A stretch of DNA of 64,000 bases, taken from the IMG/VR virus record IMGVR_UViG_3300025137_000020, positions 41,337-105,336 of that record; one strand, given 5' to 3'. Below the pieces are notes generated by a model. The model was not told where the DNA came from, ran no database searches, and saw nothing but the letters and a program-made list of their open reading frames with translations. This DNA is from a virus. This document shows, piece after piece, positions 9,306-33,714 of this stretch. Numbering within the stretch: the stretch's first letter is position 1; each line of letters starts with the position of its first letter. The position numbers and the translations under genes are program-made.

Positions 9306-9316
9306 AGTTTATTCCT

Positions 9317-11149: not shown

Positions 11150-11179
11150 AAGTGTTCCCGTTAATTTAGATTTTAATCT

Positions 11180-11187: not shown

Positions 11188-11215
11188 TGAGTTGCTGTGT
11201 AATTTATTTAGTTAT

Positions 11216-14200: not shown

Positions 14201-17200
14201 TATCGGCAGCGCGTTTAAATCAAAGTCGCCTAAATTAGTATTCTTATCGCCTTTTACATTATAGAAATTAGTATCTGCGGGATGTTTAATATCAATTGCA
14301 ACACAAGCCTCATCATTTGTTTTAAGTGTATTTAACGAAATATCATAGTCTACATTATCTTTTAAGTCAATAATAGTTTCTCTTCTTTCGTCAATCTCGT
14401 CTTTGCCTTTTACTATATCAGAATCAAAACCTTCTTTAATATTAACGTCTTTGATATAGAAATATTCTCCGCTAGCATCACCAGTATACCCAGCATAACC
14501 ACGAAGTGCATTATCCTTTAGTGTAGTAACAAATCTAACTATAGGTCTAGGGTCTTGTTGAACAGAAGGTGCAATAAATTTATGAGTAAATGGTATCCAA
14601 TTGCCCTTTTCTGTCACAACTACTGGTTCAGTTCCATACGCGTCATAGCCGGCAAGATCGCCCGTCATAATCTGAAACTCGCCTGATAGATTTGAGAACA
14701 AAGGATTTCCAGTATCGTCATACACATATTGACCACTAATTTCGTCCGTAGCTCTTTGATTGATTCCTGCCATAACATGAATCTGTTCTAGTTTAGTATT
14801 TGTTGACGGTATATAAATCTTTCCGGTGACCTCATAAATCTCGCCTGGATTATATAATTCGCCTATTCCAAATCCACCAGACTCGTCACCGAGTGAAACA
14901 TAATGTAATACTGAAGAAGACGCAATATATTTTAAAGCACCATATTTACCTTTAGGTACGCCCAAGTATGGATTTCCGCTTGAATGATATTCTTGACCAA
15001 CATCCGCAGAATCTAAAGTTCTGTTCTCTAATGCAGGTACAATTAGAGTTCCGCCGTATTTAGTTGCGCCATCTGTGGCTGCAATACTGCTGAAATCTAC
15101 GGGTCTGTAAAATTCTGTATAAAAATTGGGGTGTTGATTTGTTCTTCCTATAAACCCAGCATCTGGAGCATCGGCGACTATACATTGGAAATTCCCTTGG
15201 TATACCCTCTTTCTTTTCTCGCGAACTTTAAAATTCTCAAGCTTCCAATTGTATTCATACAGTCTTTCGAGATCAGCGATTGCGGTATTAATTGCTAAAC
15301 TATTACCAGTCCTAGTTTGGTCTCTATCAACAATATGGTCAATTAGAATTTTAGGGTCATTCTCATCTGCGGGAATGTAAAGCTTATGTGTATTAGCGCC
15401 TTCTACAATCAGACCATTGTCTAATGGCTCTACTTTAACAAATCCACCGCTTCCGCTGATCCCATCGCCCGAATCTCTATTATAAAGTTGAAGTATATTT
15501 TCGCCAATAGATAGAAATTCTGATTCAAATACGAATAGGCTATAAAATTCACTCTCTGAAGTAATATTATTCAGCTGATTATTCTGGTCAGGTACTACTC
15601 TAACTGCCGTAGTAGATTTGTAATAGTCTACTGGAGTTCTTGTCCTACTTATCGAGTCGGCGTTAGTGTCATCAACTCTTAACTGGTGACCATTATGTGC
15701 AAAAGAGTATCCACCTTCAGCGTCTCCAATGTACAGATATATTCTACATATGCCTTCTAATGATGAGTTGAATTTAAATTCGTGAGGGCCTGTTCCGTGG
15801 TGTCCAGTACCACCCAAATCTGCATTTGGATTTCCAACACAAGAACTCGGGCTCGACCGACGTATTGGAAAATACTTTCCAATTTTACCGGCAGACAAGA
15901 ATAGATTCGCAGGAATATTTTTATCATTAATTTTAGTGGCATTAAACGAAATTTCATATGCCCGGTCTGATTCCCATCTAAAGTCATCCGATACATATGC
16001 ACCGAGCTCTCCTTTATTCACCGGTTCATTCGTAGAGAACTTAACATCTCTTGTTAAGTACAAGGGTCTGTCGTGAGTATTGCTTGCAAGCGCATTATGT
16101 TCAGTATTAATTTCACCATTACCTACAGTATCAACTATCAATGTTATGTCGGATAAACCTGAAAGATTTCCAATTTCAGCATTTGGAATGACAAATCTGT
16201 CGTATTCGTCAAAACCAGTTATATCAGTCAATAAGTCAATTTGACCATAGCTTCCGCCAATGCCCGCTCGATATGCTAATTCTAAACCACTACCAAACGA
16301 GCTTGTGATATCAACGCCATCTTTATCGGTTATAGTAAATTGGCCGTCAGTAAGTAATGTGTGCTCACTTATTGTACCAACAAGCGCTGACCTGCTAGCA
16401 GCTCCAGTTCGCCTAAAGCTTCGAGGTGTTGTAGCCTTAAGAGCTTGTGCGGAGTCTCCGCCCAATGATATAGTATTATTTAATTCCAATACTTCAATAC
16501 CACCGTTATATGTGAGTGGCGTGTAGTCAGTACTGGTTTCGGTCGCAGGAATTGGATTATGAGCAGGACTGTCAGAGGTTAACCTATCAAACGAAATACC
16601 AACTTTATCTGTTTCAGTAATTAAATATTTAACTTCTTCTTCGTCGCTTTTATTGGTTGAGTAGATATCTCTTACATCAATATTTGTAGGATATTTTGAC
16701 AACTGGTGAGGCAAAACATTATTGTGTAATAATGAATGTACACTCGGCGCTTCATTATTTTCATCTAAGTAATCAATTCTCGGTCTTGCGAATTCAATTT
16801 CATTGCCGGTAGTAATAGCTCTATACAAAAAACTTCTAATTAGAACCGCATTGGTGTCAGTGCCCAGCGAAAATTCTTGGATAGTTATACTAGAAATTTT
16901 ATTTTTAGTTTCAACAGAGTATATTCCGCCATCACTGTAATCATTATAGCTTAAGCTTTCAGCTTCCGTTCTTTTAAAGAAATTTTTATTATACGTGCCG
17001 TTACTGCCATCAGCTTTAGTTATATATCCAACTGCCATATACCATTTGCCTACTTCAATCCCATCTGGCAGAGAACTCAAATCAAAACTGAAAAAGTATG
17101 GATTATTAGTAGTAATTGTGTTATTCCGTTTCGACGCTACAGTTCCTCTTACACCACTACTTGTGCTGGTATATGGATAAGCGCCAAAATACAATTTGCC

Positions 17201-20200
17201 ATCGACCGCCTCATTAATTTTAAAAAATTGAATAAATCTGTAATCTTTAATCGCGGATTGGGTAGCTATAATCGGTGACTTGTATCCGCCGTTAGACCTT
17301 ATGCCCTCTACTGCATTTTTACTCGCGGCCCATACTACATCAATGTCTCCAAAGGGTCCAGTTCTAAATTCTCTAACCGACTCAGCATCATCTTTACTAA
17401 CACCATTCAAGCCAGTCCGATTCCATCGCCCAGTAACGCCATTCGCAGTAGTGTTAAAGTCACCGATACCCGGTCTCCACGGCAAATAGCTGGAAGATTT
17501 GAGTAGATTGGTTTCTACTTCAGGCGCAATATCCATTGAATGAACTCCGCTCAATTTAGAATCTTTCACTAAAGTGCCGACTGCAAATGTATTAGGATAT
17601 GTTTTGTTTGAATCAGTTGCTGGTGTAGGAACTACTGGAAGTGAGCTATTAGCAATTTTATTAAATCCAAAATTTGGGTCATGTTTTAAAATCGCATTGT
17701 TATAAACTGGTTTACCGTCAGCTCTTTCAATTTTTAAATTCTTAAATAGTGTACTAGGTACGTGTCCCTCTACTTTATTGGTAGTCGCGGGGCTGTAATG
17801 TCCAATAAGAACTATTCTAAACTTAGTTGAGGTTGGGTCAAACTTTGTAGACGAACGGCCAGTTTGATTTACGGGATATTTATTATATGAATATGGTGCG
17901 GTTCCAATTCGGGTATCAGCTCTGCGTGGATTAAATCCACTAAAGTTAGCAGTAAACGTTCTCGACTGCCCTCCAGTTAGATTGACACCACCGGCTATTC
18001 CGTAATTAAAGATCTGCTGCTCGTCAGAGAAAATTCTATTACCAGCATCATCAATACTGCTAACGCCGGCAAAAACCCTATTAGTTTTATCTGGCAATAA
18101 ATTTTCAATCTCTAATGATATATTGTATGTAGCATCTTCATCAATAGGTATTTCTAAAGGAATTTCTAACCATTGAGAATTACCATATAATACTAATCCG
18201 CCAAAGGCTTCGTCGTAATCATACCCGCCATGGTCAGCTCCGGTTTGCGCGTAATCGTTATAAGCAGTCACATATGGTGACCAGTCGTATCCAGTGAAAT
18301 CAATTTTACTGAGATACTTTGGATCGCTAGCTTCTAATTCGCTTCTGTGCTCCACCCAAGCACCATTTATATATTCTGAAACAGCTCCATTTGCATTAAT
18401 TCTTAATTTTTGATAGCCTGATGTGGGGTGAGCAATAACTACCGGATTACCCGTCAATACAGGTGTGTCAATACTAATTCTTTCTGTGCCGATGAATGGA
18501 TAATGTTCACATTTATCTGATGTAGTATATCTCAGTGATAATGACGGACTCACTTGCTGAGCATTGAGTGTCGACGTTAAAGTCGAGCTCGTCACTGTTT
18601 GAGACTTTTCAAATATTCTGTTATGCCTTTTGTCGTATACGATACATTGCGCAGTTCGCTTTCTGCTCCATGTAGTAGTCGAATTGCGATACTGAACACT
18701 GCCTTTGCTCTTTAACCATTCTCTTAAAAATGGTTCTCCTTGACTATTATTTCCTAATCTACAAGAAGATGCATCCTGAGTATATACAATAGCAATCTCA
18801 TTAGCTGAAATATTATCTAAGTGATTTACTAACTGCGATTCGGCGGCTTCGCTTTCAATGGTACTGTTGCCATACGTATCGTATGCTGCAGCCGAATAAG
18901 TTTTAGTAGTTGGATTGAATACTATTATGTTATGTCCGCGATTTACTTGGCCATAATTATATGTTGTAGCCGAACTGGTGGCTACTAATGTTGCGGAGCC
19001 AGATGCATTTTGAGTGGTAAGGTCTGGAAATATACCAGTACCTAGATTTGTGCCCGATAGCAATGTATTACCATCAGCTCTAAGACGGGCAATGTGCCAA
19101 GTTCCGTGTGTCGCTCCAGTTACCACCTCAGAAATATTTTCTTTCTTTATAACGTAAGTAGAATCACCGTCAGTGTGTCTGTAACTACCAAGCTTATTGG
19201 CAGAATATGCTCTATCAAAATCAGAGTTTGTTGCACTGCTTATTGTAATAGCCGACAATAAATCAAAAGTAGTACTAGGTCTTGCGACAGTTCTATCTGT
19301 AAAAGTAACGCCCCTAGCATACTCATCCTTTGAATCTAATTGTGTTCCCACAACTCTGAATACTGTATCTACAGCCTTTTGTTCTGCTGTAGCTGTTACG
19401 CCATTATCTGTAACCAATACGGAAACCTGTTTCTGACCATTTGGCAAATCATCAATTTGTTTAATTGATAATTCTCTTTCGTAGCCATCTTGACCTGTCC
19501 ATTTTGTACCAGCTACATATTTATCACTACCAGATTCCTTTAATTTAAAAGACAATTCAATTTCGGAATCTTTAGTAATCCTTGCGCCAGTACGTATACC
19601 GGTTCCATTACCATCTAAAGAAATATATTTGTCTTCGTATGCTAATGAATTAATACTGTTCAAAATAGCGTTATTGGTGTGTCCTTTTAGCGTAAAGCCG
19701 GCTGAATCACCATTAGTATCGATACCACCGTCACCGATTTGTTTTATTCTTAGTCCACTGTCGTGGTCATAGAACGTATCTTTTTTGCTATTAAAGTTAG
19801 GTTGAGTCGTTTTGTAAAATGCTGAGAATTTCTCATATAGAATAATTTCTAACAATACATTAAAGAAGTATTCCAACCAACCCGGCTGCCATTTTGGTGA
19901 GTGTTGGCCCTTTGCGACAGTCTGTTGAATAGCAGAAAGCCATACGCGTACACCATCAGCAACATTAATTCTTAATGGATCGCTATCTTTAGCTCGTCTA
20001 GATTCTAGTTCTAAGTACAACGCAGTAAAGAACTTTAAACCAGACGGGTGAATAAGTTTATTATAATCAGTATCCCATCTATCAACAGATAGGTTTGTTC
20101 TGATTACATATGAAAATTCTTGAAAGTAATCGCTATCGTGAAGTTTATTTACATCAGATAAAAATCCTTTTGTTCCGGCCCAAGATATTTTTCTAGGGTA

Positions 20201-22249
20201 TGAACTTCCACTGGAAGAAAGCCCAAAATTAGTTTCTACTATCGGGCTGCTAGCACTTCCAAACCCCTTTAACGCTGACGCGATAATCAGGTTCCGTCCC
20301 TTATTTGTAAAGTTAGTACTTCCATTATTATTAAAATCAATATCAATTATCTTGTTTAAGCCTGGTAATGACTTAGCGTTAACGTAATTTTTCAGCTCGG
20401 TGTCAGTACATACTCTATCATAAAAAGCAAACTGGTAAAAATATAATTCGCCATCTGGGTTTAAACCCTTTTCGCCACTTGTACCTGTTGAACCACTATT
20501 ATGGCAATACCCAAGCATCGATGGATATAGTGACATTTGATGATCGTTACGATCAATATTTCCGTTAGTTGTTGGCGTTATAGATTGCGGGCCGTTATCG
20601 GTCACGCCCGAATTTGTCATTGCAATTTTAACTACATCAAATGTAGTCATGATTCCGTTAGCTATTGTTGATTCTACAGTAATAGCTAATCTAATTCTCT
20701 GTCTACCTAAATTTGCGGTTTCTTGGAATGGAAATGCGCCTACTCCCGTTACATAGTTGTTAAATGTTTTACTAAAATCATTTTGATGATTACCAAACCG
20801 GCCAGCAATATTAAGATTATTGCTACCATCGATTTTAATAGAAACCCCACCGTCTTTACCTGCGTCTAGGCTTAGCTCATTTGCGCTTGCAAAATGAAGA
20901 TTGCTCGCGGCGAAAAGCGGGGAGTATTTGTGTGCATTTTGCTGGTTAGAATTATATCCAGCGGGTGGAGTAGGGTCTTTTCTATAATTATTTCCAAATT
21001 TAAAATCGATAAAGTATGTTGCTTTATTAACTTGCGAGTATGCACCCTGTTGGTAAAAAGCAATTCGTCTGTAATCCTCAAACCCCTTCTTATACCAGTA
21101 TTTTTCTAGTGTTGAAGATTCATCTGCAGTACCTTGGTATATGCCATCAGATGGTTTAAACAATACCTCTTTTGGATAAAATATAGAAGCAATCTCGTCA
21201 AAAAAGATTTTAAAGAAAGATTCGAGTGAAGCTTCACTACCCCGTGTATTATAATATTCTACAACCTTTTTATATAGTGAATTTCTATCTAAATTTTTAG
21301 CTTCGGGTATGCCTTTAGCAATTTCTTTTGATATTCTTCCAAGATAGTCATCTGTAGTTTTATCGATGTCGTGCTCTTCTAAAATTCTTTTTACCACATT
21401 AGTGGGTGAAGCAATAACATCACTGACTGTAAATATAGTAGTACCAAGAATATCAATTTCAATAACATCATCAATCCTGTATCCTTGCCCTGGTTTATTA
21501 GGAAAAACTGATACCGTTTTTCCCGTATCAACTACGATGTCTAATGTTAGGCCGGATCCGTGTCCGCCTATAGTTGGAACATTAGAAAAATTAATTAAAT
21601 CAGTTTTTGTCGGTGTAATCGCGGTGGTTAATGCAATAGGATTAATTGTCCCTTTTGAATACGCAGCTGACGTTGTGATGTCTGCAGTAATAGTCGATGC
21701 ACTTACGTGCTCAGACCACAATACATTTTCTAAATTGTCAATTTTACTACCAATTGGGTCAACCAACCAATCTCTATCATAAAAATCATATTTAACTTTA
21801 CCATCGAGTATTGATAGCATTACCCAAGTATCATTATAAGCAGTTCGACTAGAGTCGAGCCTCATTATAAAATACTCTGGCTGAATAAGACCTCTATAAA
21901 CTATAGTTCCTTTCGCTGATTGAGGAAAATTGCTCGCTACAATTTCTTCATCTGTCAATTTACCATATTGCTGATTATAAGTCGACGGGACAAATGATTT
22001 TACATCAAGTCCAAGTCGTGCATCAGATTCTTTTAAATCTGCATATTGAAGTTCTTCGCCAGAGCCAGTATTAATAATACTAATTCCGTTAACGACCCCA
22101 TCAATATTCATATAATCGTAATACTCTGTCAAAAGAGTAATAAGATTACTTGCATTACCTCTCAATTGCTCGGGTATGAGCGATTCTACGCGAGAAGACT
22201 CGTTATTATGTGGCTGAATTGCAAATGATTCAATGGCTTCGTGTGACAT
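11216..22249 (-). CDS. gp7: Baseplate wedge initiator gp7 with a very large multi-domain extension (3677 aa)
   Basis: gp7 core motifs LLTEYYDYM, EYYNTRGSEASLESFFKIFF and LHDSDYFQEFSYVIRT..LIHPSGLKFF within the first ~750 aa; lies between gp6 and gp8. Confidence 0.85.
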   Translation of the reverse strand: MSHEAIESFAIQPHNNESSRVESLIPEQLRGNASNLITLLTEYYDYMNIDGVVNGISIINTGSGEELQYADLKESDARLGLDVKSFVPSTYNQQYGKLTDEEIVASNFPQSAKGTIVYRGLIQPEYFIMRLDSSRTAYNDTWVMLSILDGKVKYDFYDRDWLVDPIGSKIDNLENVLWSEHVSASTITADITTSAAYSKGTINPIALTTAITPTKTDLINFSNVPTIGGHGSGLTLDIVVDTGKTVSVFPNKPGQGYRIDDVIEIDILGTTIFTVSDVIASPTNVVKRILEEHDIDKTTDDYLGRISKEIAKGIPEAKNLDRNSLYKKVVEYYNTRGSEASLESFFKIFFDEIASIFYPKEVLFKPSDGIYQGTADESSTLEKYWYKKGFEDYRRIAFYQQGAYSQVNKATYFIDFKFGNNYRKDPTPPAGYNSNQQNAHKYSPLFAASNLHFASANELSLDAGKDGGVSIKIDGSNNLNIAGRFGNHQNDFSKTFNNYVTGVGAFPFQETANLGRQRIRLAITVESTIANGIMTTFDVVKIAMTNSGVTDNGPQSITPTTNGNIDRNDHQMSLYPSMLGYCHNSGSTGTSGEKGLNPDGELYFYQFAFYDRVCTDTELKNYVNAKSLPGLNKIIDIDFNNNGSTNFTNKGRNLIIASALKGFGSASSPIVETNFGLSSSGSSYPRKISWAGTKGFLSDVNKLHDSDYFQEFSYVIRTNLSVDRWDTDYNKLIHPSGLKFFTALYLELESRRAKDSDPLRINVADGVRVWLSAIQQTVAKGQHSPKWQPGWLEYFFNVLLEIILYEKFSAFYKTTQPNFNSKKDTFYDHDSGLRIKQIGDGGIDTNGDSAGFTLKGHTNNAILNSINSLAYEDKYISLDGNGTGIRTGARITKDSEIELSFKLKESGSDKYVAGTKWTGQDGYERELSIKQIDDLPNGQKQVSVLVTDNGVTATAEQKAVDTVFRVVGTQLDSKDEYARGVTFTDRTVARPSTTFDLLSAITISSATNSDFDRAYSANKLGSYRHTDGDSTYVIKKENISEVVTGATHGTWHIARLRADGNTLLSGTNLGTGIFPDLTTQNASGSATLVATSSATTYNYGQVNRGHNIIVFNPTTKTYSAAAYDTYGNSTIESEAAESQLVNHLDNISANEIAIVYTQDASSCRLGNNSQGEPFLREWLKSKGSVQYRNSTTTWSRKRTAQCIVYDKRHNRIFEKSQTVTSSTLTSTLNAQQVSPSLSLRYTTSDKCEHYPFIGTERISIDTPVLTGNPVVIAHPTSGYQKLRINANGAVSEYINGAWVEHRSELEASDPKYLSKIDFTGYDWSPYVTAYNDYAQTGADHGGYDYDEAFGGLVLYGNSQWLEIPLEIPIDEDATYNISLEIENLLPDKTNRVFAGVSSIDDAGNRIFSDEQQIFNYGIAGGVNLTGGQSRTFTANFSGFNPRRADTRIGTAPYSYNKYPVNQTGRSSTKFDPTSTKFRIVLIGHYSPATTNKVEGHVPSTLFKNLKIERADGKPVYNNAILKHDPNFGFNKIANSSLPVVPTPATDSNKTYPNTFAVGTLVKDSKLSGVHSMDIAPEVETNLLKSSSYLPWRPGIGDFNTTANGVTGRWNRTGLNGVSKDDAESVREFRTGPFGDIDVVWAASKNAVEGIRSNGGYKSPIIATQSAIKDYRFIQFFKINEAVDGKLYFGAYPYTSTSSGVRGTVASKRNNTITTNNPYFFSFDLSSLPDGIEVGKWYMAVGYITKADGSNGTYNKNFFKRTEAESLSYNDYSDGGIYSVETKNKISSITIQEFSLGTDTNAVLIRSFLYRAITTGNEIEFARPRIDYLDENNEAPSVHSLLHNNVLPHQLSKYPTNIDVRDIYSTNKSDEEEVKYLITETDKVGISFDRLTSDSPAHNPIPATETSTDYTPLTYNGGIEVLELNNTISLGGDSAQALKATTPRSFRRTGAASRSALVGTISEHTLLTDGQFTITDKDGVDITSSFGSGLELAYRAGIGGSYGQIDLLTDITGFDEYDRFVIPNAEIGNLSGLSDITLIVDTVGNGEINTEHNALASNTHDRPLYLTRDVKFSTNEPVNKGELGAYVSDDFRWESDRAYEISFNATKINDKNIPANLFLSAGKIGKYFPIRRSSPSSCVGNPNADLGGTGHHGTGPHEFKFNSSLEGICRIYLYIGDAEGGYSFAHNGHQLRVDDTNADSISRTRTPVDYYKSTTAVRVVPDQNNQLNNITSESEFYSLFVFESEFLSIGENILQLYNRDSGDGISGSGGFVKVEPLDNGLIVEGANTHKLYIPADENDPKILIDHIVDRDQTRTGNSLAINTAIADLERLYEYNWKLENFKVREKRKRVYQGNFQCIVADAPDAGFIGRTNQHPNFYTEFYRPVDFSSIAATDGATKYGGTLIVPALENRTLDSADVGQEYHSSGNPYLGVPKGKYGALKYIASSSVLHYVSLGDESGGFGIGELYNPGEIYEVTGKIYIPSTNTKLEQIHVMAGINQRATDEISGQYVYDDTGNPLFSNLSGEFQIMTGDLAGYDAYGTEPVVVTEKGNWIPFTHKFIAPSVQQDPRPIVRFVTTLKDNALRGYAGYTGDASGEYFYIKDVNIKEGFDSDIVKGKDEIDERRETIIDLKDNVDYDISLNTLKTNDEACVAIDIKHPADTNFYNVKGDKNTNLGDFDLNALPIIESNLLAGNLPFTVGTGTNNNFEALGNPIAFNSGSNSPFRTTQENVQLEGVTPFGSTDVLWEARNKDGDWAKLSSIFLSGTGYVAGSGYTNGTYTNVEITDSPNDSDAVGVGAKATIVVSGGKPTSITITDGGVNYGKTTAAGVYETANILVKIKAGQTLTTSGTEFIGRANLVSGTINTSSGKVISFADGGFISPQVDVDTRKTYRMSVWVKASDVRYAAGVNPYDTTDGGIKVFRWKGLNDSGATLEAINITSGDEINTPTFIDDFDFGLNSTTTSSPDGNPLNENQWFLVVGHIRPFGHVGTTDHEDSGIYLPSTNPLKVRTLPASTSRGDWKFNSAMTKIQLTVLQNANPLDAEHPVQFYAPRIDEVNGLEPSIEELTSGKAKYKLGADDYEKKIQIINWKTPILNADEAISNYSHIIEGQDFSVTIDEIKNGIEYSDEINGSLISTGAPVETLIEIEIPASGGTNTNMIILPFQKDQSSNGHNISIDWGDGTSNQVDTSRDRDLYHVYTETASPQRFIIKVAGTYHKFNVGAINSSGPSAAVTGITAIQLTAARANFKTHLRKFYLGNSALVQGGSTSASLSLKGCTGLTDFISIKGISNTSNLTNLRTLFENCSSLRHIDVRGLDTTNVTTLNAAFKNIGSGVKLIGFHKLNLSSLSRATVGPEIDFAGTTFNSDELSRCYVSWANNAYFTLPTGTIEDATGTFGVAPTAKSSVFTFDRNQTAAASATFAIDGFRDGYTNTIADLNIGDVLTCTASTWPSGTITITNIDVPNSQITISSAPTGNLGNNVVIKRPYINGDTKLGVHTITGKSGNSMSSLSTGMVVTSTNANFPTGTVTIVSIGQSAIELSSPLTGDIGNGKSIIFKETTIRLAGAPTGTIVNGMRVTGTGRSGTFKVVDASDQQNPIVDIAVNPVSGNAVTFNDTDTSDIKFTMGSTKYFAGAQYDSPNDTTPTNIVSNARTLLVTAVSGGGKSIEITDGGVESGDFDF

Positions 22250-24571: not shown

Positions 24572-26179
24572 TTAGTAGTCTTCGCCCAAGAAATCGCGTA
24601 GCTCTGGACTAATTCTTATGGGCTGTGTGGCTCCTTTAGGCACTTCGTGCACAAACCCAAAGGAAGCCAAATCTTTATGAGCTTGATAAGTGTCTGCGAA
24701 TTGTGTGACATATCTTTTACCATCCTCGCTCGTCGAATACATGAAGTGCGGAATAAATGAAGATTCGGAATGCTTAGATACTTGACTAGTATCTTCTTCA
24801 GTTGCATTTCCCGAAAGTACGGATTCCCACGGCTCAAGTTTTCCACCGACTGAATTTGGTATAAAGTTTCCTGCGGATGGAAAGTCTTCTAATTCTTTGA
24901 CTGCGGTATTTGTTGTCCAAGAAATCATTGTTAAAAAGGCCAAGCGACTTTCTTTACTAATTATTACTTTAGCGTTAAATAAAGTATTTACATAGTCGTG
25001 TATCATATTGGCATAATCATTATCTGCTTCTACATGAGTACTATTTCTTATGCTCGTGATAGTATAAAAATGTGGAATAAAATTTGCTCGATAATCATTA
25101 TATTTAAATTTAAATGCTGGTGGTATTCTTATCTTAGCTTCATCCGTACCACACAATTGCCTTAAGCCATATCCATACTCTGGATTATATTCTTTAATGC
25201 CGAAACCCACTTCATTATATACCTGTCGCTGGAGTTGGGGTTTGTATTGCTCATCAAATTTTCCATCATACCACCGGTTATTACCCCGAACGTCAGGTCG
25301 TCTACCGAGAGTAAGAAGCACCTTGCTCCCATAGTTCGATATCGCAGACTCCATATTTGCATATGCTGTTAGCTTTGACTTATATAAAACCCAACGGTCT
25401 AATGCAGGTGGAACTCGTATGTCTGGGTTTAATAAATAATAATCAGCCACTTGGCCCTCTGGGTTTCTTATTTTCCACGCAGACGGTAGGTTGTGAAACA
25501 TAGTGGATGCCTGAGTTTGGTCGCCTTGTTGAGTCATTCCGCGGGTCGTCTCTTCCATCTTCTCGCGAAGTGATTTCATAAATTCTTTCTCGGCTTCAAC
25601 TATTACGGCCTTCGCTGCTTTAGCTTGAGTTACAGAAAATCCTGACTGCGATATTATTTGGTCTACCTTCGGATCTGCCGGCATCTCCGCAGCAGTAGGT
25701 TGCACTGGCTCTGGGTCTTCTTGCTCTGGATTACCATCAATATTTTCTACTACATCAATAGTAGTAGGTGTTGGTTCTAATTTACCATCTGCTCCAACCT
25801 TAGCTTCTACTTTAGGAACGTCTTTACATATATCAAAGTCCAATAACGCAAGTGGGTTTTTTACTATATCCAGTACATCTTCAATATTATCGACGAGGTC
25901 ACCCCATGCGTTTTGTATTTTCTGTAAGTCTTCTAAAAGCTCAGGTGCACCGGCCTTAGCTTTTGCGATTAGTTTATTAATTTCATCTTGAAAATTAGGA
26001 ATTTCTGGCAACTTCGGTATACTTAGATTCATCGCATCTAGTTGCTCTTGGGCAGCTGCCTTTATGTCGGCCAATGCGTCTTTGCCAAGAGTGTCTAATT
26101 GAGCAAGCTTATCAGCCAATGCTTTTTTCTTTTCTTCTAAGCTCGCTAATAATTTATTCTTTCCACAATCTATTGCCAT
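24572..26179 (-). CDS. Hypothetical baseplate-region protein (535 aa; helical N-terminus, Pro/Glu linker, unknown globular C-terminus)
   Basis: Long ORF. Start MAIDCGK chosen because it follows the PAAR stop; the longer track start overlaps PAAR. Confidence 0.7.
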   Translation of the reverse strand: MAIDCGKNKLLASLEEKKKALADKLAQLDTLGKDALADIKAAAQEQLDAMNLSIPKLPEIPNFQDEINKLIAKAKAGAPELLEDLQKIQNAWGDLVDNIEDVLDIVKNPLALLDFDICKDVPKVEAKVGADGKLEPTPTTIDVVENIDGNPEQEDPEPVQPTAAEMPADPKVDQIISQSGFSVTQAKAAKAVIVEAEKEFMKSLREKMEETTRGMTQQGDQTQASTMFHNLPSAWKIRNPEGQVADYYLLNPDIRVPPALDRWVLYKSKLTAYANMESAISNYGSKVLLTLGRRPDVRGNNRWYDGKFDEQYKPQLQRQVYNEVGFGIKEYNPEYGYGLRQLCGTDEAKIRIPPAFKFKYNDYRANFIPHFYTITSIRNSTHVEADNDYANMIHDYVNTLFNAKVIISKESRLAFLTMISWTTNTAVKELEDFPSAGNFIPNSVGGKLEPWESVLSGNATEEDTSQVSKHSESSFIPHFMYSTSEDGKRYVTQFADTYQAHKDLASFGFVHEVPKGATQPIRISPELRDFLGEDY

Positions 26180-26183: not shown

Positions 26184-26474
26184 TTAACCTCCTGCAAATA
26201 CGTTTGATGAACCAGACGCGACTGAAGTACATCCACTAATACCATCACCAACTCTTCCGCATCCTAGTCCATTTACTTTTACTGTGCTTGAACCTGCAGC
26301 GATCGGTGCAGAGTGCGATGGGCAAGGAGAACCAGGAAGTAAGTGCCCTGTGTTATTATCGCCTTGGCGAGACACAGCAATTCCATTAGCGAAAACATTT
26401 CCACTTCCGGCTGCTCTCACCATTCCACTACAATGAGCCACATCTGCGTCTCCTATTCTTGTTACTGCTGGCAT
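26184..26474 (-). CDS. gp5.4: PAAR spike-tip protein gp5.4
   Basis: MPAVTRIGD..HC, GSGNVFANGIAVSRQGD, GSSTVKVNG..GRVGD..C, SGSSNVFAGG. Confidence 0.95.
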   Translation of the reverse strand: MPAVTRIGDADVAHCSGMVRAAGSGNVFANGIAVSRQGDNNTGHLLPGSPCPSHSAPIAAGSSTVKVNGLGCGRVGDGISGCTSVASGSSNVFAGG

Positions 26475-26479: not shown

Positions 26480-26487
26480 TATTTATA
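26480..26487 (-). promoter_or_regulatory. Late promoter TATAAATA
   Basis: Exact consensus 5 nt upstream of the PAAR ATG. Confidence 0.8.
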
Positions 26488-26489: not shown

Positions 26490-28073
26490 CTAAGTGGCGG
26501 TTTCCATATAAGTCTTTAACCACGTTAAAGCTGGTCTTTCTCCCGTACCATCACGATTAATTAATCCAGTCTGATGGCCCTGGTCGTATCTCCAATTCTC
26601 TGTGTTAATATATCCCCAAATCGTTACCCGTTCTACATTAGGGTGATTCCATATCGCTGGAAAAATAACTTGATATCTATCGAGTTGCTTTTGATCTATA
26701 TCGATACTATCGCTGTTTGTACCTGAGATATCAAGCTCTGTAATGTGGATAGGTAATCCAGTTTGACTATGTACATCGTCAATGGCTGCAGTGATTTGAG
26801 CTGCGGTCAAATCATTAATATTAAAATAATGAGATTGCATACCAACTCCGTCAATTAAATTTGGATTATGATTTTTAATTGCATTGACTGCAGCACAATT
26901 TTCATCACGAACTGTTTGATTACTCATCATACCAAAATCGTTTATCCAAATTTTTGCATTTGGAAAATAATTTCTTACTGTCTCGAAAATATAAATCGCC
27001 CAATCATAACCACTCGTACCAGCTCCACCAAATTGATTTATGATTCGAGTAGTACCAGCGTCTTGGTGACCTGTAGCGATTTCATTAAGCGCTGCGATAC
27101 CATAGATATCATCTCCATATCGTGTAGATATTGCACTACACCAAGTTTCAAAGGCCGACTTACTTTCAGCAACACTTAAACCTTCCCACCAATCGGGTGT
27201 ACCTTGATCAGCTCCCCAAATTAATGTATGCCATAACATTTTAATCCCATTTCTCTTACAATGAGCATGTAATATATCAGCTCCACTAAAATCGAATGTA
27301 CCACGAACCTTTTCTACTGGTTGCCATTTACAAAGATTGCCAGCGGCCGCACTATTCCATAAGTCGGCATAATTTGCAGCATTTTGCTCAGTAACAAAAG
27401 GTTGAGTGGATTGTATCTCACTCATCTGAGCAGTATTAATATTTCCAAGCAACTTACTCTTTTGATATGCTAATGCACCTATATTATCTGCAACTTGTAC
27501 ACGTTGTGCAGTAGCTCTACCTATAAGTTGAGCAAAAATATTTTGGTTTAAAACAGTATGAGTAAATGAATAAGTTAATCCATCAGTCGCACCACTGTCA
27601 TATTTTATTGCAAATTGTACTTGATACGTAACATCAACTTCACTGGAGCCCTCTTCGGCCTTAAATAATTCAACGTTGTCGGGCAAAGCAGTTATATTGT
27701 TTCCTATAGTGGGGGTTTCAATTAAATCACTTGAACCAGCCGAAACGTGTTTTACTACGTCGTCTGTGAATGCCCCATCGTATTGTCCGACTAATCTTAT
27801 TTTATATTCTCCACTGGTATCTACATCATGTGGATATGTTACAGCTGTTCCGCCTAGCTCAAGAGTGATTGTTATAGTATCATTCGTGCTTATGTTTTGA
27901 CTGATGTCAATAAAAGGCGAACCCGTCATGTGGGTCAATCCTGTTATTTCGGTGATATTACCATCGGGGCTAGAGTCTAAGTTTTTATTAACAGTAATTA
28001 GCTTTGTAAAATTAAATGCTTTGCCACGAGCTTTATCTTGGGAATTAATATCTGTGATTTCAATATCTGACAT
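26490..28073 (-). CDS. Beta-rich N-terminal domain fused to a GH10 (endo-xylanase family) catalytic domain
   Basis: GH10 motifs KW..VE..RGTFDFSGAD, HTLIWG, NE (acid/base), INDFG, IDGVGMQSH, LPIHITELDI (nucleophile) and VTIWG. Confidence 0.9.
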   Translation of the reverse strand: MSDIEITDINSQDKARGKAFNFTKLITVNKNLDSSPDGNITEITGLTHMTGSPFIDISQNISTNDTITITLELGGTAVTYPHDVDTSGEYKIRLVGQYDGAFTDDVVKHVSAGSSDLIETPTIGNNITALPDNVELFKAEEGSSEVDVTYQVQFAIKYDSGATDGLTYSFTHTVLNQNIFAQLIGRATAQRVQVADNIGALAYQKSKLLGNINTAQMSEIQSTQPFVTEQNAANYADLWNSAAAGNLCKWQPVEKVRGTFDFSGADILHAHCKRNGIKMLWHTLIWGADQGTPDWWEGLSVAESKSAFETWCSAISTRYGDDIYGIAALNEIATGHQDAGTTRIINQFGGAGTSGYDWAIYIFETVRNYFPNAKIWINDFGMMSNQTVRDENCAAVNAIKNHNPNLIDGVGMQSHYFNINDLTAAQITAAIDDVHSQTGLPIHITELDISGTNSDSIDIDQKQLDRYQVIFPAIWNHPNVERVTIWGYINTENWRYDQGHQTGLINRDGTGERPALTWLKTYMETAT

Positions 28074-28270
28074 TACATAGTTTCCCGTTCTAGTAATTCT
28101 TGTAACTTACCTTCCCACTGTTCCATTTCCTCATGCTGTTCATCAGTATGAGGTGGGTCAGGCATCTCTGGTACAAATGCAATTACGTTCTCAAATGACT
28201 CTGGTATTTCTTCAAAATTCTGATATACCTTAGTTCTACCACCTATTAAAATTTTAAAATAGTGTGCCAT
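28073..28270 (-). CDS. Small conserved protein downstream of gp5
   Basis: EIPESFENVIAFVPEMPDPPHTDEQHEEM motif recalled from marine T4-like phages; TAATG coupling on both sides. Confidence 0.7.
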   Translation of the reverse strand: MAHYFKILIGGRTKVYQNFEEIPESFENVIAFVPEMPDPPHTDEQHEEMEQWEGKLQELLERETM

Positions 28271-29622
28271 TAGTTTAGATTAATCCGCGAACCGTCGATA
28301 TCTGTAATTCCTGCTGCGTGTAAGTCCATCGCATCTGGTGTATCTACAGTAATCTTTCCGGTCGCGTCAATATCTAAAGTCGATGTCACATCAATCTTAT
28401 ATGTAGTATCAATAACATCTGTTCTTGCACCGGTATTTTGTTTAAGCGTACCAATAACTGACCGCGATTCATTACCCATAATTACACTCTTTAAATTTTT
28501 ACCAAATGTGATATTCCCGCTTCTCTTACATTCAAACTCAAACGCTCTTGGAGAATCATTTGCTGATGGAGATTGGTGACTAGCGTGAATAGTTCTTTTT
28601 TCGAATTCGCCAATACTAGAAATTAAATTTCCTTTTACATTCATCATTTGGTTTTTATCTACTTCAAGGAAATCAGACATCACGATCTTTTCATGCTTAT
28701 TGCCACGAACTAAAAGGTGATAATCTTTTTCTACTTCCATATAATAATCGCCTTTAACCAATGTTCTTGCATCACCGTTAATAGTTACATTGCAATTTCC
28801 TTTAATAGAAACATTATTATTTTCAAGTACAACCTTATATTCATTTCCATTTACAACGATAGTTTTATCTCCACTAGCATCAATTTCACTATAAGTACCT
28901 GAAGTGTGTTGTACTAAAATTCTTTCGTTATTGGGAGTTTCATCAAATTCTACAATATGACCACAGCCGTATTCTTTAGTATGGCAATTAGGATACGTAG
29001 GATTTGTAATATCTTCTTGGCTTTCTTGTAACCATCGTTTTCTTTCAAAGAATTTGGCGTCTTTCTGCAAAGTATTCTTAAGTGTGTCTGTGCTAGGCGG
29101 AACCGCCATTGGTATATTTACTTTCTTGCCGTCTTTATCGAGCGCGCGAGAATCATTCCGTAAACTACTTTTATCAATATAAGACTTAGACTCCCTATAT
29201 TCACTGGTAGCACCTTTAGGTTGGTCATTCGCGTTTGCAGTTCTGGGATTTTCTCCAAATGGGTCCGCGAACCCCTTTTCGTAATCAGAACCCATGGGTG
29301 TTCTAGATGGTAATGTTCCTAATACTAATGGGTCTTGGCATGCCTCGCCATCTCTAAAGAATCCAACTACCCAGCTACCTTGAACAACACCAGTAGCAGC
29401 TTCACCAATACCAGAGCATGACCCAGAAGTAATCGGTGTCATCACATTCGCCCACGGCAAATCAATAGTACGAATACCGTCTTCTTTATTTTTATTTGAG
29501 GTGTGATAACCAAAGCATCTTACTCTCACTCGTCCTTGTTCATACGGGTCGTGAATATCTTCTACTACACCAATAAACCAATGAAACCCCGTTGATAGGA
29601 AATTATTATTTTTATAATCCAT
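28270..29622 (-). CDS. gp5: Baseplate central spike gp5 (no lysozyme domain)
   Basis: OB-fold WFIGVVEDIHDP..GRVRVRCFGYH, DLPWA, GSWVVGFFRDG; YP..H..CGHIVEFDETP..ERI..H.SGT; beta-helix; terminal RINLN. Confidence 0.95.
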   Translation of the reverse strand: MDYKNNNFLSTGFHWFIGVVEDIHDPYEQGRVRVRCFGYHTSNKNKEDGIRTIDLPWANVMTPITSGSCSGIGEAATGVVQGSWVVGFFRDGEACQDPLVLGTLPSRTPMGSDYEKGFADPFGENPRTANANDQPKGATSEYRESKSYIDKSSLRNDSRALDKDGKKVNIPMAVPPSTDTLKNTLQKDAKFFERKRWLQESQEDITNPTYPNCHTKEYGCGHIVEFDETPNNERILVQHTSGTYSEIDASGDKTIVVNGNEYKVVLENNNVSIKGNCNVTINGDARTLVKGDYYMEVEKDYHLLVRGNKHEKIVMSDFLEVDKNQMMNVKGNLISSIGEFEKRTIHASHQSPSANDSPRAFEFECKRSGNITFGKNLKSVIMGNESRSVIGTLKQNTGARTDVIDTTYKIDVTSTLDIDATGKITVDTPDAMDLHAAGITDIDGSRINLN

Positions 29623-29625: not shown

Positions 29626-30996
29626 TTAAATTTCGGAAAAAACTGAATCCTTTTTGCATTCTACGTCACATGTATATTTATCTTCTTGATCGTTAAATTC
29701 AAATTTGTGTAGAACTGACGTTATTAAATAATTACCAGAAAGCAATTTGTCGAGATGCCCGGTATCAGCATCTTCGCTGTTATACCCGCGGTATGCTATA
29801 GCTTCCATAGATTTAGGAAATAACAATTTGATTTTTCTACCAGCCTGTAAATTAAAATCGCCATTCAATGTAATATTTTGGGTCATTGTATTTAATTTAG
29901 AATTAAACGCGTTTATTGTAGCAGCCCCGTGTCGCATATCATTTCCATAGTTCTTATTTGCGCCATACGCTAATTCATTGATAGAAAAATATTCTGTATG
30001 GGCATCAGGCAAAGAATTTAAAGGTCTACTGTTATTTCTTCCAATCTTAAAAGACTGCGATAATAGTGTATGGCCTCTGTCTGATACAGCAGTCTTTCTA
30101 ACATTCGAACCGCTATCACCACCATAATCAAATTCTTTCTGTTTAAATGTTTTATTTGACAAATCTAGAAAATTATTTTTCGAGGCATAGCCGCCACGTA
30201 CTGATTGCGCAACCTTTGACATACCTAAATTAGAAGAGAAATCTAGTATTCTAGTCTGTCTTTCTACATAATCATCTTCGGTATGAGGTGCTGCAGTGTA
30301 TCCTTTTAAATAGACATATGCATTGTAATTTTTATTTAGTTCCGAATCCATTAAATACGACAGTGAATATAGTCGTACCATGTTATCAATGCTCTGGAAG
30401 AAAAAGAATGGTGCTCCGTTTTCATCGTGAGCAGATTTTCTAAAATACTCAATTGCGGATAATGGTTCTTGCATATTAATTATACCTTTATGCCTAGAAA
30501 CATCAGTTCCTTTAATAGACATACTATCATAAAATAAATCATTTTGTACAATTCTTCTAATCTGCTCACTAGCACTACTATTATATGCCCGAGAGATTTT
30601 CATAAATTTAGAATTATACGCATGATGCGAAATTCCCTTTAAAACGTATGCTTGCTGATTAGCATTAGTATGGGATTTTGCAAAGTCAGAGTATTCTGTA
30701 ATCACAAATTCCATAGTTCTATTAACCGGCGTGTCACTTACAAACGGCCATTTCTCAAACTCAATACTTAAAGTCTCTTGTCCAATAAGAGCAAAAGACT
30801 CAAAGAAATTAACTGAATCCGCAATAGTAACTTCGATTATAATTGAAGGTAAGTATATACTTTCACGAATTACAATATTAGAAATCAATTCGTCAATTAC
30901 ACGGAAGTCTCCTGTGTGATTATATAATTTAGCACTTACTAAACTGAAATGCGAAGGGTCTAAGCTTTTTCCACTGCTCGATAATGTTGTTGCCAT
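29626..30996 (-). CDS. Baseplate hub protein (gp27-like)
   Basis: Between gp53 and gp5; IRESIY, FFFFQS, GDFNLQAG, DKLLSGNYLITSVLHKF, KDS. Confidence 0.7.
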   Translation of the reverse strand: MATTLSSSGKSLDPSHFSLVSAKLYNHTGDFRVIDELISNIVIRESIYLPSIIIEVTIADSVNFFESFALIGQETLSIEFEKWPFVSDTPVNRTMEFVITEYSDFAKSHTNANQQAYVLKGISHHAYNSKFMKISRAYNSSASEQIRRIVQNDLFYDSMSIKGTDVSRHKGIINMQEPLSAIEYFRKSAHDENGAPFFFFQSIDNMVRLYSLSYLMDSELNKNYNAYVYLKGYTAAPHTEDDYVERQTRILDFSSNLGMSKVAQSVRGGYASKNNFLDLSNKTFKQKEFDYGGDSGSNVRKTAVSDRGHTLLSQSFKIGRNNSRPLNSLPDAHTEYFSINELAYGANKNYGNDMRHGAATINAFNSKLNTMTQNITLNGDFNLQAGRKIKLLFPKSMEAIAYRGYNSEDADTGHLDKLLSGNYLITSVLHKFEFNDQEDKYTCDVECKKDSVFSEI

Positions 30997-31006: not shown

Positions 31007-32506
31007 CTAATAACCTCCACCGCCACCAGAAGGAGCACCGCCACCAGAAGGAGCACCGCCACCACCAGCAGAACCACCTGATGAAAAACCTCCACCACCA
31101 CCAGTAGAAGCAGTAGATATGATTCCATTAGTACTTCCTACCCGAGTAAGACCTTGATTGAGTTTCCGTTTAAATTCTTTTACAAAATCTTCAATTAATT
31201 CAGGCCGGACAATTTTAATTCGACTTTTTTCATCATTCACACGTATTGCTGATTGATAATTACTAACATAATTCATTGGTTCTTGACCTTCTACTGCAAG
31301 TTCATTTCCATATGTTAAGTATTTGTATTCGCCATCAGCGTCAAGATATTGTTTTCGCTGAATACCGTTTAGCATATCATGCGCATTAATTTTATCGTCA
31401 AGATTTGCTGGGTCACCGCCTTGTCTGTAATAATATGCAGGGGCATTTCTTGCTGAAACAAATGAATGTTCTTTACCATCGGCTTGGCGTCTATACGGCT
31501 GAAGACCATACCACTTCATGTTTCCGTTAACGTACCAAGGAGTAAAATAATTTCTAAAAACGTTTAATGCAGCTTGAGTTCTTCCAATAGAAACATCTCT
31601 CGTCTGGTCTTGAAATTCTCTTAGAGGTAAATTATTATAGGCTAGTATATTACCGTCTACAGTAGTTTGGTTAGCTTGGCCAATAATTTGTGTTTCGAAC
31701 CACTCAAATAAATGTTCACACCATTCAACTCTTTCTGCCGTCATAAGATTCTTATAAAACGGACCCGGTTCCATGTGATTCGCACCGTCGCCTTCCCTAT
31801 AACCATTCTCCGAATTTTCTCCTATAATTGGCCAATCGTTAAACGTAAATGACATCGTACCTTGATGTGCCTCGCTAGCCCATGTTCCTAACGCGTTTTG
31901 CTGAAAATTTAAAACGGGGGTTTGTAATAAAGTGTTCTTTAACTCTAATTTAGCATCACCCATGAACAAATTTCTATTAGAAAAATCTTTTAGGTATAAT
32001 TGATTTAGCCCTTGGTCCCATTTTACAATTGAAGCCGTGGAAAAATTTCTATAAACTTTTAAATCTTCGTAAGATAAATCTAAACCCGCTAAGCTATTTG
32101 ATATATGCTCGTATTCTTTAGTTTCGGGGTCATTGTCTTCTTCTAATTGTCCCGTCGCTACAACAATCTTATCTCTAATAACTGGGTTTAACGTAAATAC
32201 GCCAATATTATCATACTCATTTGTAAATTCTGTTTCAATAGAAGAAGAGGCTTGAGGCCAATCATCTAAACCAGCTTTTAAACTTTCATTTATAATAAAG
32301 AACGTCCAATAATAATCTGGTGTACCATATAGCCTTTGCGATAAATTGTCTGGTCTTTCACCATCTCCGACCGTTATCAATCGATACGATGCAATATCAG
32401 AAGCGAGAATGTCATTAACGTCTACGTGGCGGAATAAATCAACAATCGCTTTAGGCTGATTGCCTATTTGTAATTGTGTAAATGGAAATTGGCTGAAAAA
32501 ACTCAT
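31007..32506 (-). CDS. gp53: Baseplate wedge gp53 (LysM-like), enlarged, with a Gly-rich tail
   Basis: MSFFSQFP, GERPDNLSQRLYGTPDYYWTFFIIN, WP, NDEKSRIKIVRPE. Confidence 0.9.
   Translation of the reverse strand: MSFFSQFPFTQLQIGNQPKAIVDLFRHVDVNDILASDIASYRLITVGDGERPDNLSQRLYGTPDYYWTFFIINESLKAGLDDWPQASSSIETEFTNEYDNIGVFTLNPVIRDKIVVATGQLEEDNDPETKEYEHISNSLAGLDLSYEDLKVYRNFSTASIVKWDQGLNQLYLKDFSNRNLFMGDAKLELKNTLLQTPVLNFQQNALGTWASEAHQGTMSFTFNDWPIIGENSENGYREGDGANHMEPGPFYKNLMTAERVEWCEHLFEWFETQIIGQANQTTVDGNILAYNNLPLREFQDQTRDVSIGRTQAALNVFRNYFTPWYVNGNMKWYGLQPYRRQADGKEHSFVSARNAPAYYYRQGGDPANLDDKINAHDMLNGIQRKQYLDADGEYKYLTYGNELAVEGQEPMNYVSNYQSAIRVNDEKSRIKIVRPELIEDFVKEFKRKLNQGLTRVGSTNGIISTASTGGGGGFSSGGSAGGGGAPSGGGAPSGGGGGY
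31018..31064. repeat. 18-bp tandem repeat (2.6 copies) encoding APSGGG
   Basis: caccgccaccagaaggag twice, then caccgccacca. Confidence 0.85.
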
Positions 32507-33663
32507 AGTACTCTTTGGTCCTTGTTATATGCTTTGTCGACCCCACCACCACCTTTGACCAGTCCGACATCCGTTTCAACAAATCCTTCTCCATAATTAA
32601 GAGCGGTGGCACGGGATGTTCCTTTATTACTAATGCCCCTTGCATTCATCATATCGTCGTCATCAGCACCTTCAGTACTATATTTTTCAATCATATTGTG
32701 AAGGTTATCGATATCGGTTCTTTCTAGAGCTCTTGCTTCTTGGAATGTCATTGATATATCGACTTCAAGTGGTGCACCATCTACGTGCCATACAGGCGCA
32801 GTAGTATTGAACGTAGAATTAAAATTTTGAAGGTAGCATGCCATGATACCAGGCAAAAATTTATTTGTCATAACACCCTTATCATTAATTCCTGTTAAAA
32901 ATTCAATTTCCCATATAGCAGGATATTGTAAAAAACCAGCAGAATCTGATTTACCTTGATTTAATCTTCCGGCGTACATATATCTTCTAAATCTATGATG
33001 TATATGTCTAATTGCCAATGCTTCTTCTTGACTATCTGCAATCATTTTGAAATTAAAGGTAAAAGAACGAATACCAGACCCTTGGAATGCAGTATTTTGA
33101 AATGGATTAGCAACGATTCGATTTGCAAATGTAACTTTATCTACAAACCCTTCAGCTCCTGCTAACTTAGCTCCAGCAATTCCTAATTTACCTAAGGCCT
33201 GAACAATAGTACCACTTTTAGTAAAATTGCCACCAAGTGAAGCAACACCAGCATCTTTGTTACCTTCTGTTCTATTTAATCCATCACTCAATCCCGCACC
33301 GAACATTCCTAAATCAATAGTAGAAAGCGCTGCATTATCAGCAAATGCGATATTAGCAGGACATGGAAAATATGTAGCTCTTCGTACTAAATTAAATATT
33401 TTTTCTCCACTTTTTTTAATGTCTTCTCGTTCAAAACAAGTAAAGCGAACCTGCGGCCGGGCAGTATTAGAATTTAAATTTAGAGGATATCTTAAGTCCT
33501 CTCTAGATACTACGGTCCTGTCTGGTATTAGAGCGTCAGCTCCTTGGCCTAAAAGATTTCCTTTAGTAATTGCACCTTCTCCAGTTGGTTTGACAGAGGT
33601 TTGCTTGTTCTGGCCAAGCCCGAGTACATCTGAGCCGAAGCTTTGGGAACTCCAACCAGCCAT
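32503..33663 (-). CDS. gp48: Baseplate tail-tube cap gp48
   Basis: LRYPL, NPFQNTAFQGSGIRSFTFNFKM, YP..WEIEF, GAPLEVDISMTFQE. Confidence 0.85.
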   Translation of the reverse strand: MAGWSSQSFGSDVLGLGQNKQTSVKPTGEGAITKGNLLGQGADALIPDRTVVSREDLRYPLNLNSNTARPQVRFTCFEREDIKKSGEKIFNLVRRATYFPCPANIAFADNAALSTIDLGMFGAGLSDGLNRTEGNKDAGVASLGGNFTKSGTIVQALGKLGIAGAKLAGAEGFVDKVTFANRIVANPFQNTAFQGSGIRSFTFNFKMIADSQEEALAIRHIHHRFRRYMYAGRLNQGKSDSAGFLQYPAIWEIEFLTGINDKGVMTNKFLPGIMACYLQNFNSTFNTTAPVWHVDGAPLEVDISMTFQEARALERTDIDNLHNMIEKYSTEGADDDDMMNARGISNKGTSRATALNYGEGFVETDVGLVKGGGGVDKAYNKDQRVL

Positions 33664-33686: not shown

Positions 33687-33714
33687 TATAAATACCATCA
33701 TAACTCTATTTATA
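33687..33714. promoter_or_regulatory. Face-to-face pair of late promoters: TATAAATA on + (33687-33694, gp4) and on - (33707-33714, gp48)
   Basis: Two exact consensus sites in the 60-bp gap between divergent genes. Confidence 0.8.

Follow-up and report, generated by a model that had tools for sequence, protein, structure and literature searches.

A predicted GH10 glycanase fused to a gp5.1-like domain in the spike module of a marine T4-like phage

We analysed a 64,000-nucleotide stretch of viral DNA (positions 41,337 to 105,336 of IMG/VR record IMGVR_UViG_3300025137_000020; hereafter the window), in which a minus-strand gene at 26490-28073 encodes a 527-residue protein (P0001) that joins a gp5.1-like domain to a glycoside hydrolase family 10 (GH10) domain. 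The window comes from a 105-kb contig, estimated to be ~59% complete, of an uncultured marine T4-like myovirus. The fusion gene, delimited by translation of its open reading frame (ORF) and by a first methionine that aligns with 18 relatives, lies in a minus-strand baseplate operon. This operon begins with a gp48-like gene (32503-33663) and continues with a gp53-like gene (31007-32506), a tail protein gene (29626-30996), the gene for a 450-residue gp5 spike (28270-29622), an acidic ORF of 65 residues (28073-28270), the fusion gene and the gene for a 96-residue, gp5.4-like PAAR spike-tip protein (26184-26474; Pfam PAAR_motif, E = 3.8e-9). After PAAR come a ~535-residue protein, gp25, gp6 and a 3677-residue gp7-like giant.

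The genes of the spike module are tightly packed. TAATG overlaps join the stop codon of gp5 to the start of the 65-residue ORF and the stop of that ORF to the start of the fusion gene, and 15 nucleotides separate the stop codon of the fusion from the PAAR start. A first-pass annotation of the window, made from its sequence alone, had proposed that the GH10 gene is translationally coupled into the gp5 operon; the overlaps bear this out, with the addition of the 65-residue ORF, which had been missed. This ORF matches phrog_24555 (E = 2.1e-8) and is 36% identical to PHM2_080 of Prochlorococcus phage P-HM2 (E = 2e-13); a phrog_24555 small ORF lies directly upstream of the gp5.1-like gene wherever IMG/VR loci have upstream sequence. 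T4 5.3 was considered as its counterpart and rejected, as it resembles the DNA-binding remnant of a homing endonuclease. The PAAR protein is 82% identical to that of P-HM2. The gp5 protein, identified by Pfam Gp5_OB and Gp5_trimer_C, aligns with T4 gp5 over the OB domain (T4 residues 3-125) and the β-helix (387-534). Its inter-domain stretch comprises ~75 residues, compared with ~210 in T4, and Pfam found no lysozyme domain in the protein, in agreement with the first-pass annotation.

The C-terminal part of the fusion is a GH10 (β/α)8 catalytic domain. Pfam Glyco_hydro_10 (PF00331) matches residues 223-519 (26517-27407, minus strand) with E = 4.8e-49 and 167.7 bits against a curated cut-off of 22.1 bits, covering profile positions 19-308 of 311; the complete barrel described earlier at about 26490-27460 was thus placed about right. 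AlphaFold2 models the whole protein with a mean predicted local distance difference test (pLDDT) value of 80.7, the GH10 region lying mostly at 80-98. A Foldseek search with the model returned at least 500 matches at E ≤ 0.001, and 49 of the best 50 are GH10 enzymes. The best is 4pmy (template modelling (TM) score 0.87, normalised to the target; 32% identity), which is also the top phmmer match in the PDB (E = 8.8e-48, with the next-best GH10 at 7e-20). This structure represents XynB, a GH10 endo-β-1,4-xylanase of Xanthomonas axonopodis pv. citri (4pmx, 4pmy and 4pn2), which belongs to the same short GH10 subtype and has the same catalytic residues.

Both catalytic glutamates recognized in the first pass are present. 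E331 (codon 27081-27083, minus strand), the predicted acid/base catalyst in the sequence ALNE, aligns with the NE motif of 4pmy, and E446 (codon 26736-26738, minus strand), the predicted nucleophile in ITELD, aligns with ITEFD. Both are unchanged in 19 relatives, down to 39% identity, as are the −1 subsite residues N246, K249, H282, N330, Q413, H415, W486 and W494. We predict from these residues that the domain is a catalytically intact, retaining β-glycanase. Such invariance speaks against the idea that the domain has become a receptor-binding module that holds a glycan without turning it over; a changed −2 subsite (described below) could mark a switch to binding, and some relatives carry lectin-like domains, yet we regard this explanation as very improbable.

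In canonical GH10 xylanases, the glutamate of a TPEN motif binds the −2 xylose, and this subsite is a sign of typical xylanase specificity rather than of GH10 membership. At this position the window protein reads WNSAAAGNLCKW, compared with WNKLTPENGGKW in XynB (4pmy): the glutamate is replaced by G245 (codon 27339-27341, minus strand) and the asparagine is kept. The AAGN reading and the altered −2 subsite noted in the first pass therefore stand, and the change extends across the phage clade. Among phage-type proteins that span the motif, the glutamate position is glycine in 26 of 27 and asparagine in the other, whereas all 14 cellular relatives that span it retain the glutamate. Loss of this residue in every phage copy argues against ordinary β-1,4-xylan as the substrate, and the xylose-containing capsule or algal xylan particles once suggested as targets found no support. 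XynB itself differs from the window protein in keeping TPEN and in being a free single-domain enzyme, with no equivalent of the spike-module N-terminal domain, and the two are only 32% identical.

The cellular GH10 relatives, at most ~40% identical to the phage domains, are secreted xylanases of polysaccharide degraders, for example Bacteroidota, Paenibacillus and Opitutaceae. They start with hydrophobic leaders, that is, signal peptides, and several carry C-terminal sorting domains of the type IX secretion system (T9SS). In the window protein we found no hydrophobic segment or signal peptide, the highest 15-residue Kyte-Doolittle mean in the first 75 residues being 0.67. The ancestry among secreted xylanases is what could suggest an auxiliary metabolic gene, a host-derived xylanase that boosts carbon supply during infection and whose position is accidental. 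We consider this highly unlikely. An enzyme with no export signal could not reach xylan from a living cell, the canonical xylose-binding glutamate is gone, the surrounding operon is a late structural one, and both the fusion and its position have been kept over 35-88% sequence divergence.

Residues 1-190 (27504-28073, minus strand) form an all-β domain by AlphaFold2 secondary structure, a β-sandwich to which we could assign no specific PDB fold. It is followed by a linker (residues 191-222; 27408-27503, minus strand) that is partly helical and of low model confidence (AlphaFold2, pLDDT and alignment A2). The first pass had described this part as a β-rich domain of ~200 residues with no signal peptide, which holds, and had raised the possibility that relatives carry it alone or with other cargo domains. 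The first alternative proved correct: the domain corresponds to a common standalone family. A phmmer search with residues 1-215 against 1.84 billion representative proteins returned few relatives, of which three are standalone proteins of 150-163 residues. One of the three, P0053, has its counterpart in the Prochlorococcus phages P-HM1, P-HM2 and MED4-213, in a gene that lies directly upstream of PAAR and is annotated as 'toxin' or 'putative RTX toxin'. This family, phrog_23903, consists of proteins of 150-190 residues in at least 212 clusters at 90% identity.

Several comparisons connect the N-terminal domain to this family. A custom hidden Markov model (HMM) built from 121 standalone proteins matches window residues 76-177 with 49 bits, and blastp aligns the domain with IMG/VR standalone ORFs at 29-37% identity. 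Alignment A2 is collinear from residue 1 to the end of the standalone proteins, which stop just before the linker into which the fusion runs on. In a Foldseek search of the domain model against BFVD, a database of predicted viral structures, the P-HM1 protein ranks first. On these comparisons the N-terminal domain is homologous to the standalone PAAR-neighbour family phrog_23903. The 'toxin' label that RefSeq and PHROG attach to PHM2_081 of P-HM2 (L006:6929-7438) and to phrog_23903 finds no support in Pfam, and a conserved protein of the spike module seems to have been mis-annotated as an 'RTX toxin'. Separately, the domain shows an insertion polymorphism of ~42 residues after a GSS(D/N)L.ETPT motif (window 27713-27736, minus strand, compared with L002:5588-5686); the insertion is present in most close relatives and lacking in the window protein, P0004, P0010, P0028 and all standalone proteins.

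The genomic setting of the standalone family, which is spread across a large group of marine and freshwater T4-like phages, is highly regular. In 58 of 62 standalone loci from IMG/VR, the small ORF comes first and is followed by the standalone protein, PAAR, gp25 and gp6, and the remaining 4 break off at the contig edge before PAAR. The PAAR neighbours of the family are 75-94% identical to the window PAAR. The Prochlorococcus phages named above share with the window the homologue of residues 1-190, the phrog_24555 ORF upstream and PAAR downstream; their proteins differ in being standalone, with no catalytic domain. This conservation of the N-terminal domain beside the PAAR gene strengthens the view that the fusion is part of the spike apparatus.

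In most of the 62 standalone loci, a short gp5 immediately precedes the small ORF, and none has GH10. This bears on the reading that the enzyme replaces the lysozyme of gp5, as a spike-borne stand-in that cuts peptidoglycan or another periplasmic glycan. The gp5 of the window does lack a lysozyme domain, and the T4 spike translocates to the periplasm, where its glycosidase acts (bioRxiv 10.1101/2025.08.28.672839). Yet the commoner standalone-type relatives have an equally short gp5 and manage with no GH10, which indicates that the enzyme is an addition and not a substitute that the phage needs. The serine-rich linkers with immunoglobulin (Ig)-like or lectin-like domains found in relatives (see below) further resemble architectures that bind extracellular polysaccharides. 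We also know of no GH10 member that cleaves peptidoglycan. This reading is thus weakened, and we hold it to be quite improbable. The T4 enzyme, which lies inside gp5, is among the closest known parallels, being likewise a glycoside hydrolase genetically tied to, and made with, a cell-puncturing device; it differs in being a GH24 domain inserted in gp5 itself, whereas here a GH10 TIM barrel is attached to a gp5.1-like partner.

The position of the standalone family recalls T4 gp5.1. In T4, gene 5 is followed by 5.1 (164 residues), by an inserted homing-endonuclease gene, segC, whose remnant is 5.3, and by 5.4 (PAAR) and 6. The standalone protein P0052 matches phrog_23903 (E = 1.6e-16) and also, over nearly its full length, the gp5.1 family phrog_1168 (E = 6e-6). 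Comparison by hhalign of the N-terminal domain family with the gp5.1 family gave a probability of 74% (E = 2.7e-5, 123 columns), and a second alignment pair gave 79% (E = 1.7e-5), the two collinear matches spanning 111-123 columns. The BFVD matches that follow P-HM1 are proteins of 145-172 residues from Aeromonas phage 65.2 and Acinetobacter phages Henu6 and 133, probable gp5.1 proteins matched at TM scores of 0.44-0.56 (target-normalised). Phage 133 has a gene for 145 residues between gp5 and gp5.4 that T4 gp5.1 matches by tblastn; we equate this gene with the BFVD entry from organism and length only. T4 gp5.1 (phrog_1168; PF26906 in newer Pfam) shares with the family its position by gp5 and PAAR, an all-β fold and the size of the standalone relatives (145-185 residues). 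It differs from the window protein, which bears GH10 on its C terminus and whose gene is preceded by a 65-residue ORF that is absent in T4. From this combination of profile, structure and position we conclude with good confidence that the N-terminal domain is probably a remote homologue of T4 gp5.1, a protein that has been modelled on the side face of gp5.4 (PMC13611949).

Phage-type GH10 domains form ~28 protein clusters. In IMG/VR the fusion occurs in three contigs only, that of the window included, and further examples come from metagenome contigs. Of the fusion-type clusters, 26 have sequence that extends to the N terminus, and all of these carry the gp5.1-like domain. Every fusion with sufficient contig follows a small ORF and precedes PAAR, from which no more than one additional ORF separates it. 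No cargo other than GH10 was found fused to the N-terminal domain, either by phmmer against the 1.84 billion representatives or in the 62 IMG/VR loci; the domain occurs with GH10 or standalone. Apart from these, a 376-residue protein (P0027, from a 20-kb metagenome contig) falls in the phage GH10 clade, has no gp5.1-like domain and reads CNN for AGN.

In a quick maximum-likelihood tree, the phage GH10 domains form one clade with a Shimodaira-Hasegawa-like approximate likelihood ratio test (SH-aLRT) support of 99. A single phage clade, together with cellular identities of at most ~40%, points to a GH10 domain that was captured once, long ago, and would since have been retained under selection for catalysis. 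Phylogeny had been proposed in the first pass as a route to the donor, and it delivered the single clade more firmly than the source: the sister group is a Bacteroidota clade with a support of 87, where the tool marks strong support at 95, and the donor was possibly a member of this phylum.

The end of the fusion gene adjoining PAAR is a variable slot. A near-identical phage (L002; IMGVR_UViG_3300017763_003712), with flanks of 96-98% nucleotide identity and a gp6 fragment that is 100% identical over 409 residues, has 2.4 kb of additional sequence inserted where the GH10 gene has its 3′ end (L002:5248-9289, compared with window 26490-28073). The insertion adds a poly-serine linker and two Ig-like domains, giving an 803-residue protein, and also supplies a separate 542-residue Peptidase_S8 ORF directly before PAAR. 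Other relatives vary at the same place. P0004 and P0018 have C-terminal Laminin_G_3 lectin-like domains, and P0020 has a homologous C-terminal extension; a 681-residue right-handed β-helix protein follows the fusion as a separate ORF in L167, and a fibre-like protein occupies the slot in L154, L155, L160 and L164. Cargo other than GH10 or the fused Ig-like and lectin-like extensions thus takes the form of separate neighbouring ORFs, and the gp5.1-like domain was not detected in these neighbours (S8 protease, β-helix, fibre-like and 535-residue proteins). Three loci contain a second gp5.1-like paralogue (206 residues) in the interval between fusion and PAAR (L169:312-932, L170:298-918 and L163:3339-3737), which suggests a duplication before or after GH10 capture. 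Module variation between near-identical phages would be typical of genes for host-surface interaction, and the serine-rich linkers with Ig-like or lectin-like modules suggest an extracellular polymer as the target.

The ~535-residue protein between PAAR and gp25 (24572-26179, minus strand) has a coiled-coil-like N terminus and gave no match or lead in Pfam, PHROG or Atlas. With the TTG listed as its start, at 26251, the ORF would overlap PAAR; the ATG at 26179 is the likely start. Homologues of 27-28% identity occur in L156 and L157; the protein is absent from standalone-type phages, where PAAR abuts gp25.

Late expression of the module is suggested by the positions of promoter-like motifs. 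T4-type late-promoter-like TATAAATA motifs stand shortly before the gp48-like gene that opens the operon (33707-33714, minus strand), before PAAR (26480-26487, minus strand, in the interval that follows the GH10 stop) and before gp25. The motif at 26480 and at least four more (11180, 24558, 33707 and 45067) lie immediately ahead of start codons on the minus strand. The window holds 10 such motifs where 9.9 are expected by chance, so only their positions are informative. From these positions we infer late transcription of the GH10-containing operon. In T4, the only ORFans with late promoters are 5.1, 5.3 and 5.4 (bioRxiv 10.1101/2025.08.28.672839).

Collectively, these features suggest a spike-tip-associated glycanase that acts on a glycan of the host envelope, an interpretation that we favour slightly. 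The fusion protein would be made late, with the baseplate hub and spike proteins, and its gp5.1-like domain would dock it on or beside the gp5-PAAR tip; the gene context suggests that it may be present in the virion. The GH10 domain could then cut a β-linked envelope glycan (capsule, exopolysaccharide (EPS), O-antigen or S-layer) directly under the baseplate or, alternatively, travel inward with the spike. The first-pass view, in which the glycanase is part of the spike apparatus and has no metabolic role, gains from the partnership of the N-terminal domain with PAAR, the coupled operon, the missing export signal and the variable slot; what it said of the particular glycan does not share in this gain.

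Several observations weigh against a place at the spike tip. The fusion and its relatives are known as genes alone, and T4 gp5.1 has no assigned function and is unseen in T4 particle reconstructions and cryo-electron microscopy maps (PMC13611949). The link to gp5.1 is remote, with hhalign probabilities below 80%, and the phrog_1168 HMM has no direct match in this contig or in P-HM2. Searched with the N-terminal domain alone, the PHROG library gave no match at E ≤ 1, and the fold is a generic β-sandwich whose best PDB Z score, 7.8, lies within the background range. A globular load of 58 kDa would also be mechanically awkward on a tip that pierces membranes.

Some of the same observations would fit a soluble enzyme, made late in the cytoplasm and absent from the particle. 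Freed at lysis, it would degrade capsule, EPS or particle-bound polysaccharide around the burst cell and so aid the escape of progeny, or clear decoy receptors, its gp5.1-like domain serving as an assembly factor or chaperone with no docking role. The absence of gp5.1 from the published T4 reconstructions (PMC13611949) is as this explanation would have it; it is gene context that would place the family in virions, and a missing signal peptide is also compatible with release by lysis. Left unexplained, however, are the fusion to a PAAR-neighbour protein in every cluster that reaches the N terminus, the tight coupling to the gp5 operon and the gathering of fibre-like, β-helix and Ig-like modules at one spot. 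We judge a soluble enzyme unlikely.

As a glycanase at the spike tip, the fusion would have likely counterparts in purpose among the β-helix tailspike and tail-fibre depolymerases, which locally remove host-surface glycans before injection. These are trimeric β-helices encoded by fibre or tailspike genes, unlike the TIM barrel of a central spike module described here. The locus is also akin to the VgrG/PAAR islands of the type VI secretion system (T6SS), in that a spike gene and a PAAR gene flank small conserved helper genes and a variable set of enzymes (here glycanase, protease and β-helix protein). It differs in being a phage baseplate operon rather than a secretion system, and loading of the tip is here a proposal from genes; none of the T6SS adaptor families DUF4123, DUF1795 and DUF2169 was detected. 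It is conceivable, although we lean against it, that gp5.1-like proteins are a general spike-tip adaptor that binds the PAAR/gp5 tip and carries or recruits exchangeable envelope-degrading cargo, which would be the GH10 glycanase in this phage and the S8 protease, β-helix enzyme and lectin or Ig modules in its relatives.

No cultured relative emerged among 50,697 phage records, either by megablast of the 12-kb module or by tblastn of the 527-residue protein, and the sole matches were two gut phage contigs with GH10 domains ~25% identical. The closest cultured relatives of the contig are Methylophilales phage Melnitz and Pelagibacter phages HTVC008M and Mosig, at a gp6 identity of only 33-36%; at that distance, the closest isolates infect OM43 and SAR11. 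Host clues within the DNA are few: psbA was not found in the 105-kb contig, and the window has two tRNAs only. The regions of Melnitz and HTVC008M that we examined contain no gp5.1-like gene. The 667-residue 'tail lysozyme' at the same position in Melnitz was considered and set aside, as it has no significant similarity to the fusion and is a gp5-like β-helix protein. In that phage a gp5 OB-domain protein (L004:7619-8659) is followed by the separate β-helix protein and then by PAAR. The OB-domain protein has a sub-threshold match to VanY/M15 peptidases (22.4 against a cut-off of 25 bits), which hints that the spike of related phages may bear a wall-cutting enzyme of another kind.

Elsewhere in the window, the minus strand encodes very large baseplate and fibre proteins (4107-22249), among them the 3677-residue ORF right after gp6, in the position of gp7, a gp8-like protein of 610 residues and a DUF4815 protein of 1732 residues. 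A serine hydroxymethyltransferase (E = 1e-152) lies beside a tryptophan-halogenase-family protein (E = 5e-112) at 47246-49847 (minus strand). A further minus-strand cluster (53897-59738) encodes a protein with a C5 cytosine methylase fold, a weakly matching APH-like kinase, a weakly matching Agt-like glucosyltransferase, a dCMP deaminase and an enzyme with a thymidylate synthase fold, an assortment that suggests DNA hypermodification.

Phage enzymes on fibres, tailspikes and spikes are well known. Our literature searches brought up no description of GH10 in the spike module of a phage, nor of an enzyme joined to a protein of the gp5.1 type, and those aimed at GH10 or xylanases in phage particles yielded only words with the same beginning, such as GH108. 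The fusion serves as a natural domain-fusion clue and argues for a physical partnership between the gp5.1 family and the spike tip. It offers a testable role for one of the three T4 ORFans with late promoters and for the 'toxin'-labelled protein, which occurs across hundreds of clusters from marine phages. It also cautions that viral carbohydrate-active enzymes (CAZymes) of this kind should not be counted as auxiliary genes of carbon cycling. The slot beside PAAR is a small, bounded hot-spot at which enzymes relevant to host range swap between near-identical phages. If the adaptor proposal is true, the locus would be the phage counterpart of the VgrG-PAAR effector islands of the T6SS, and the T4 ORFan 5.1 would gain a function.

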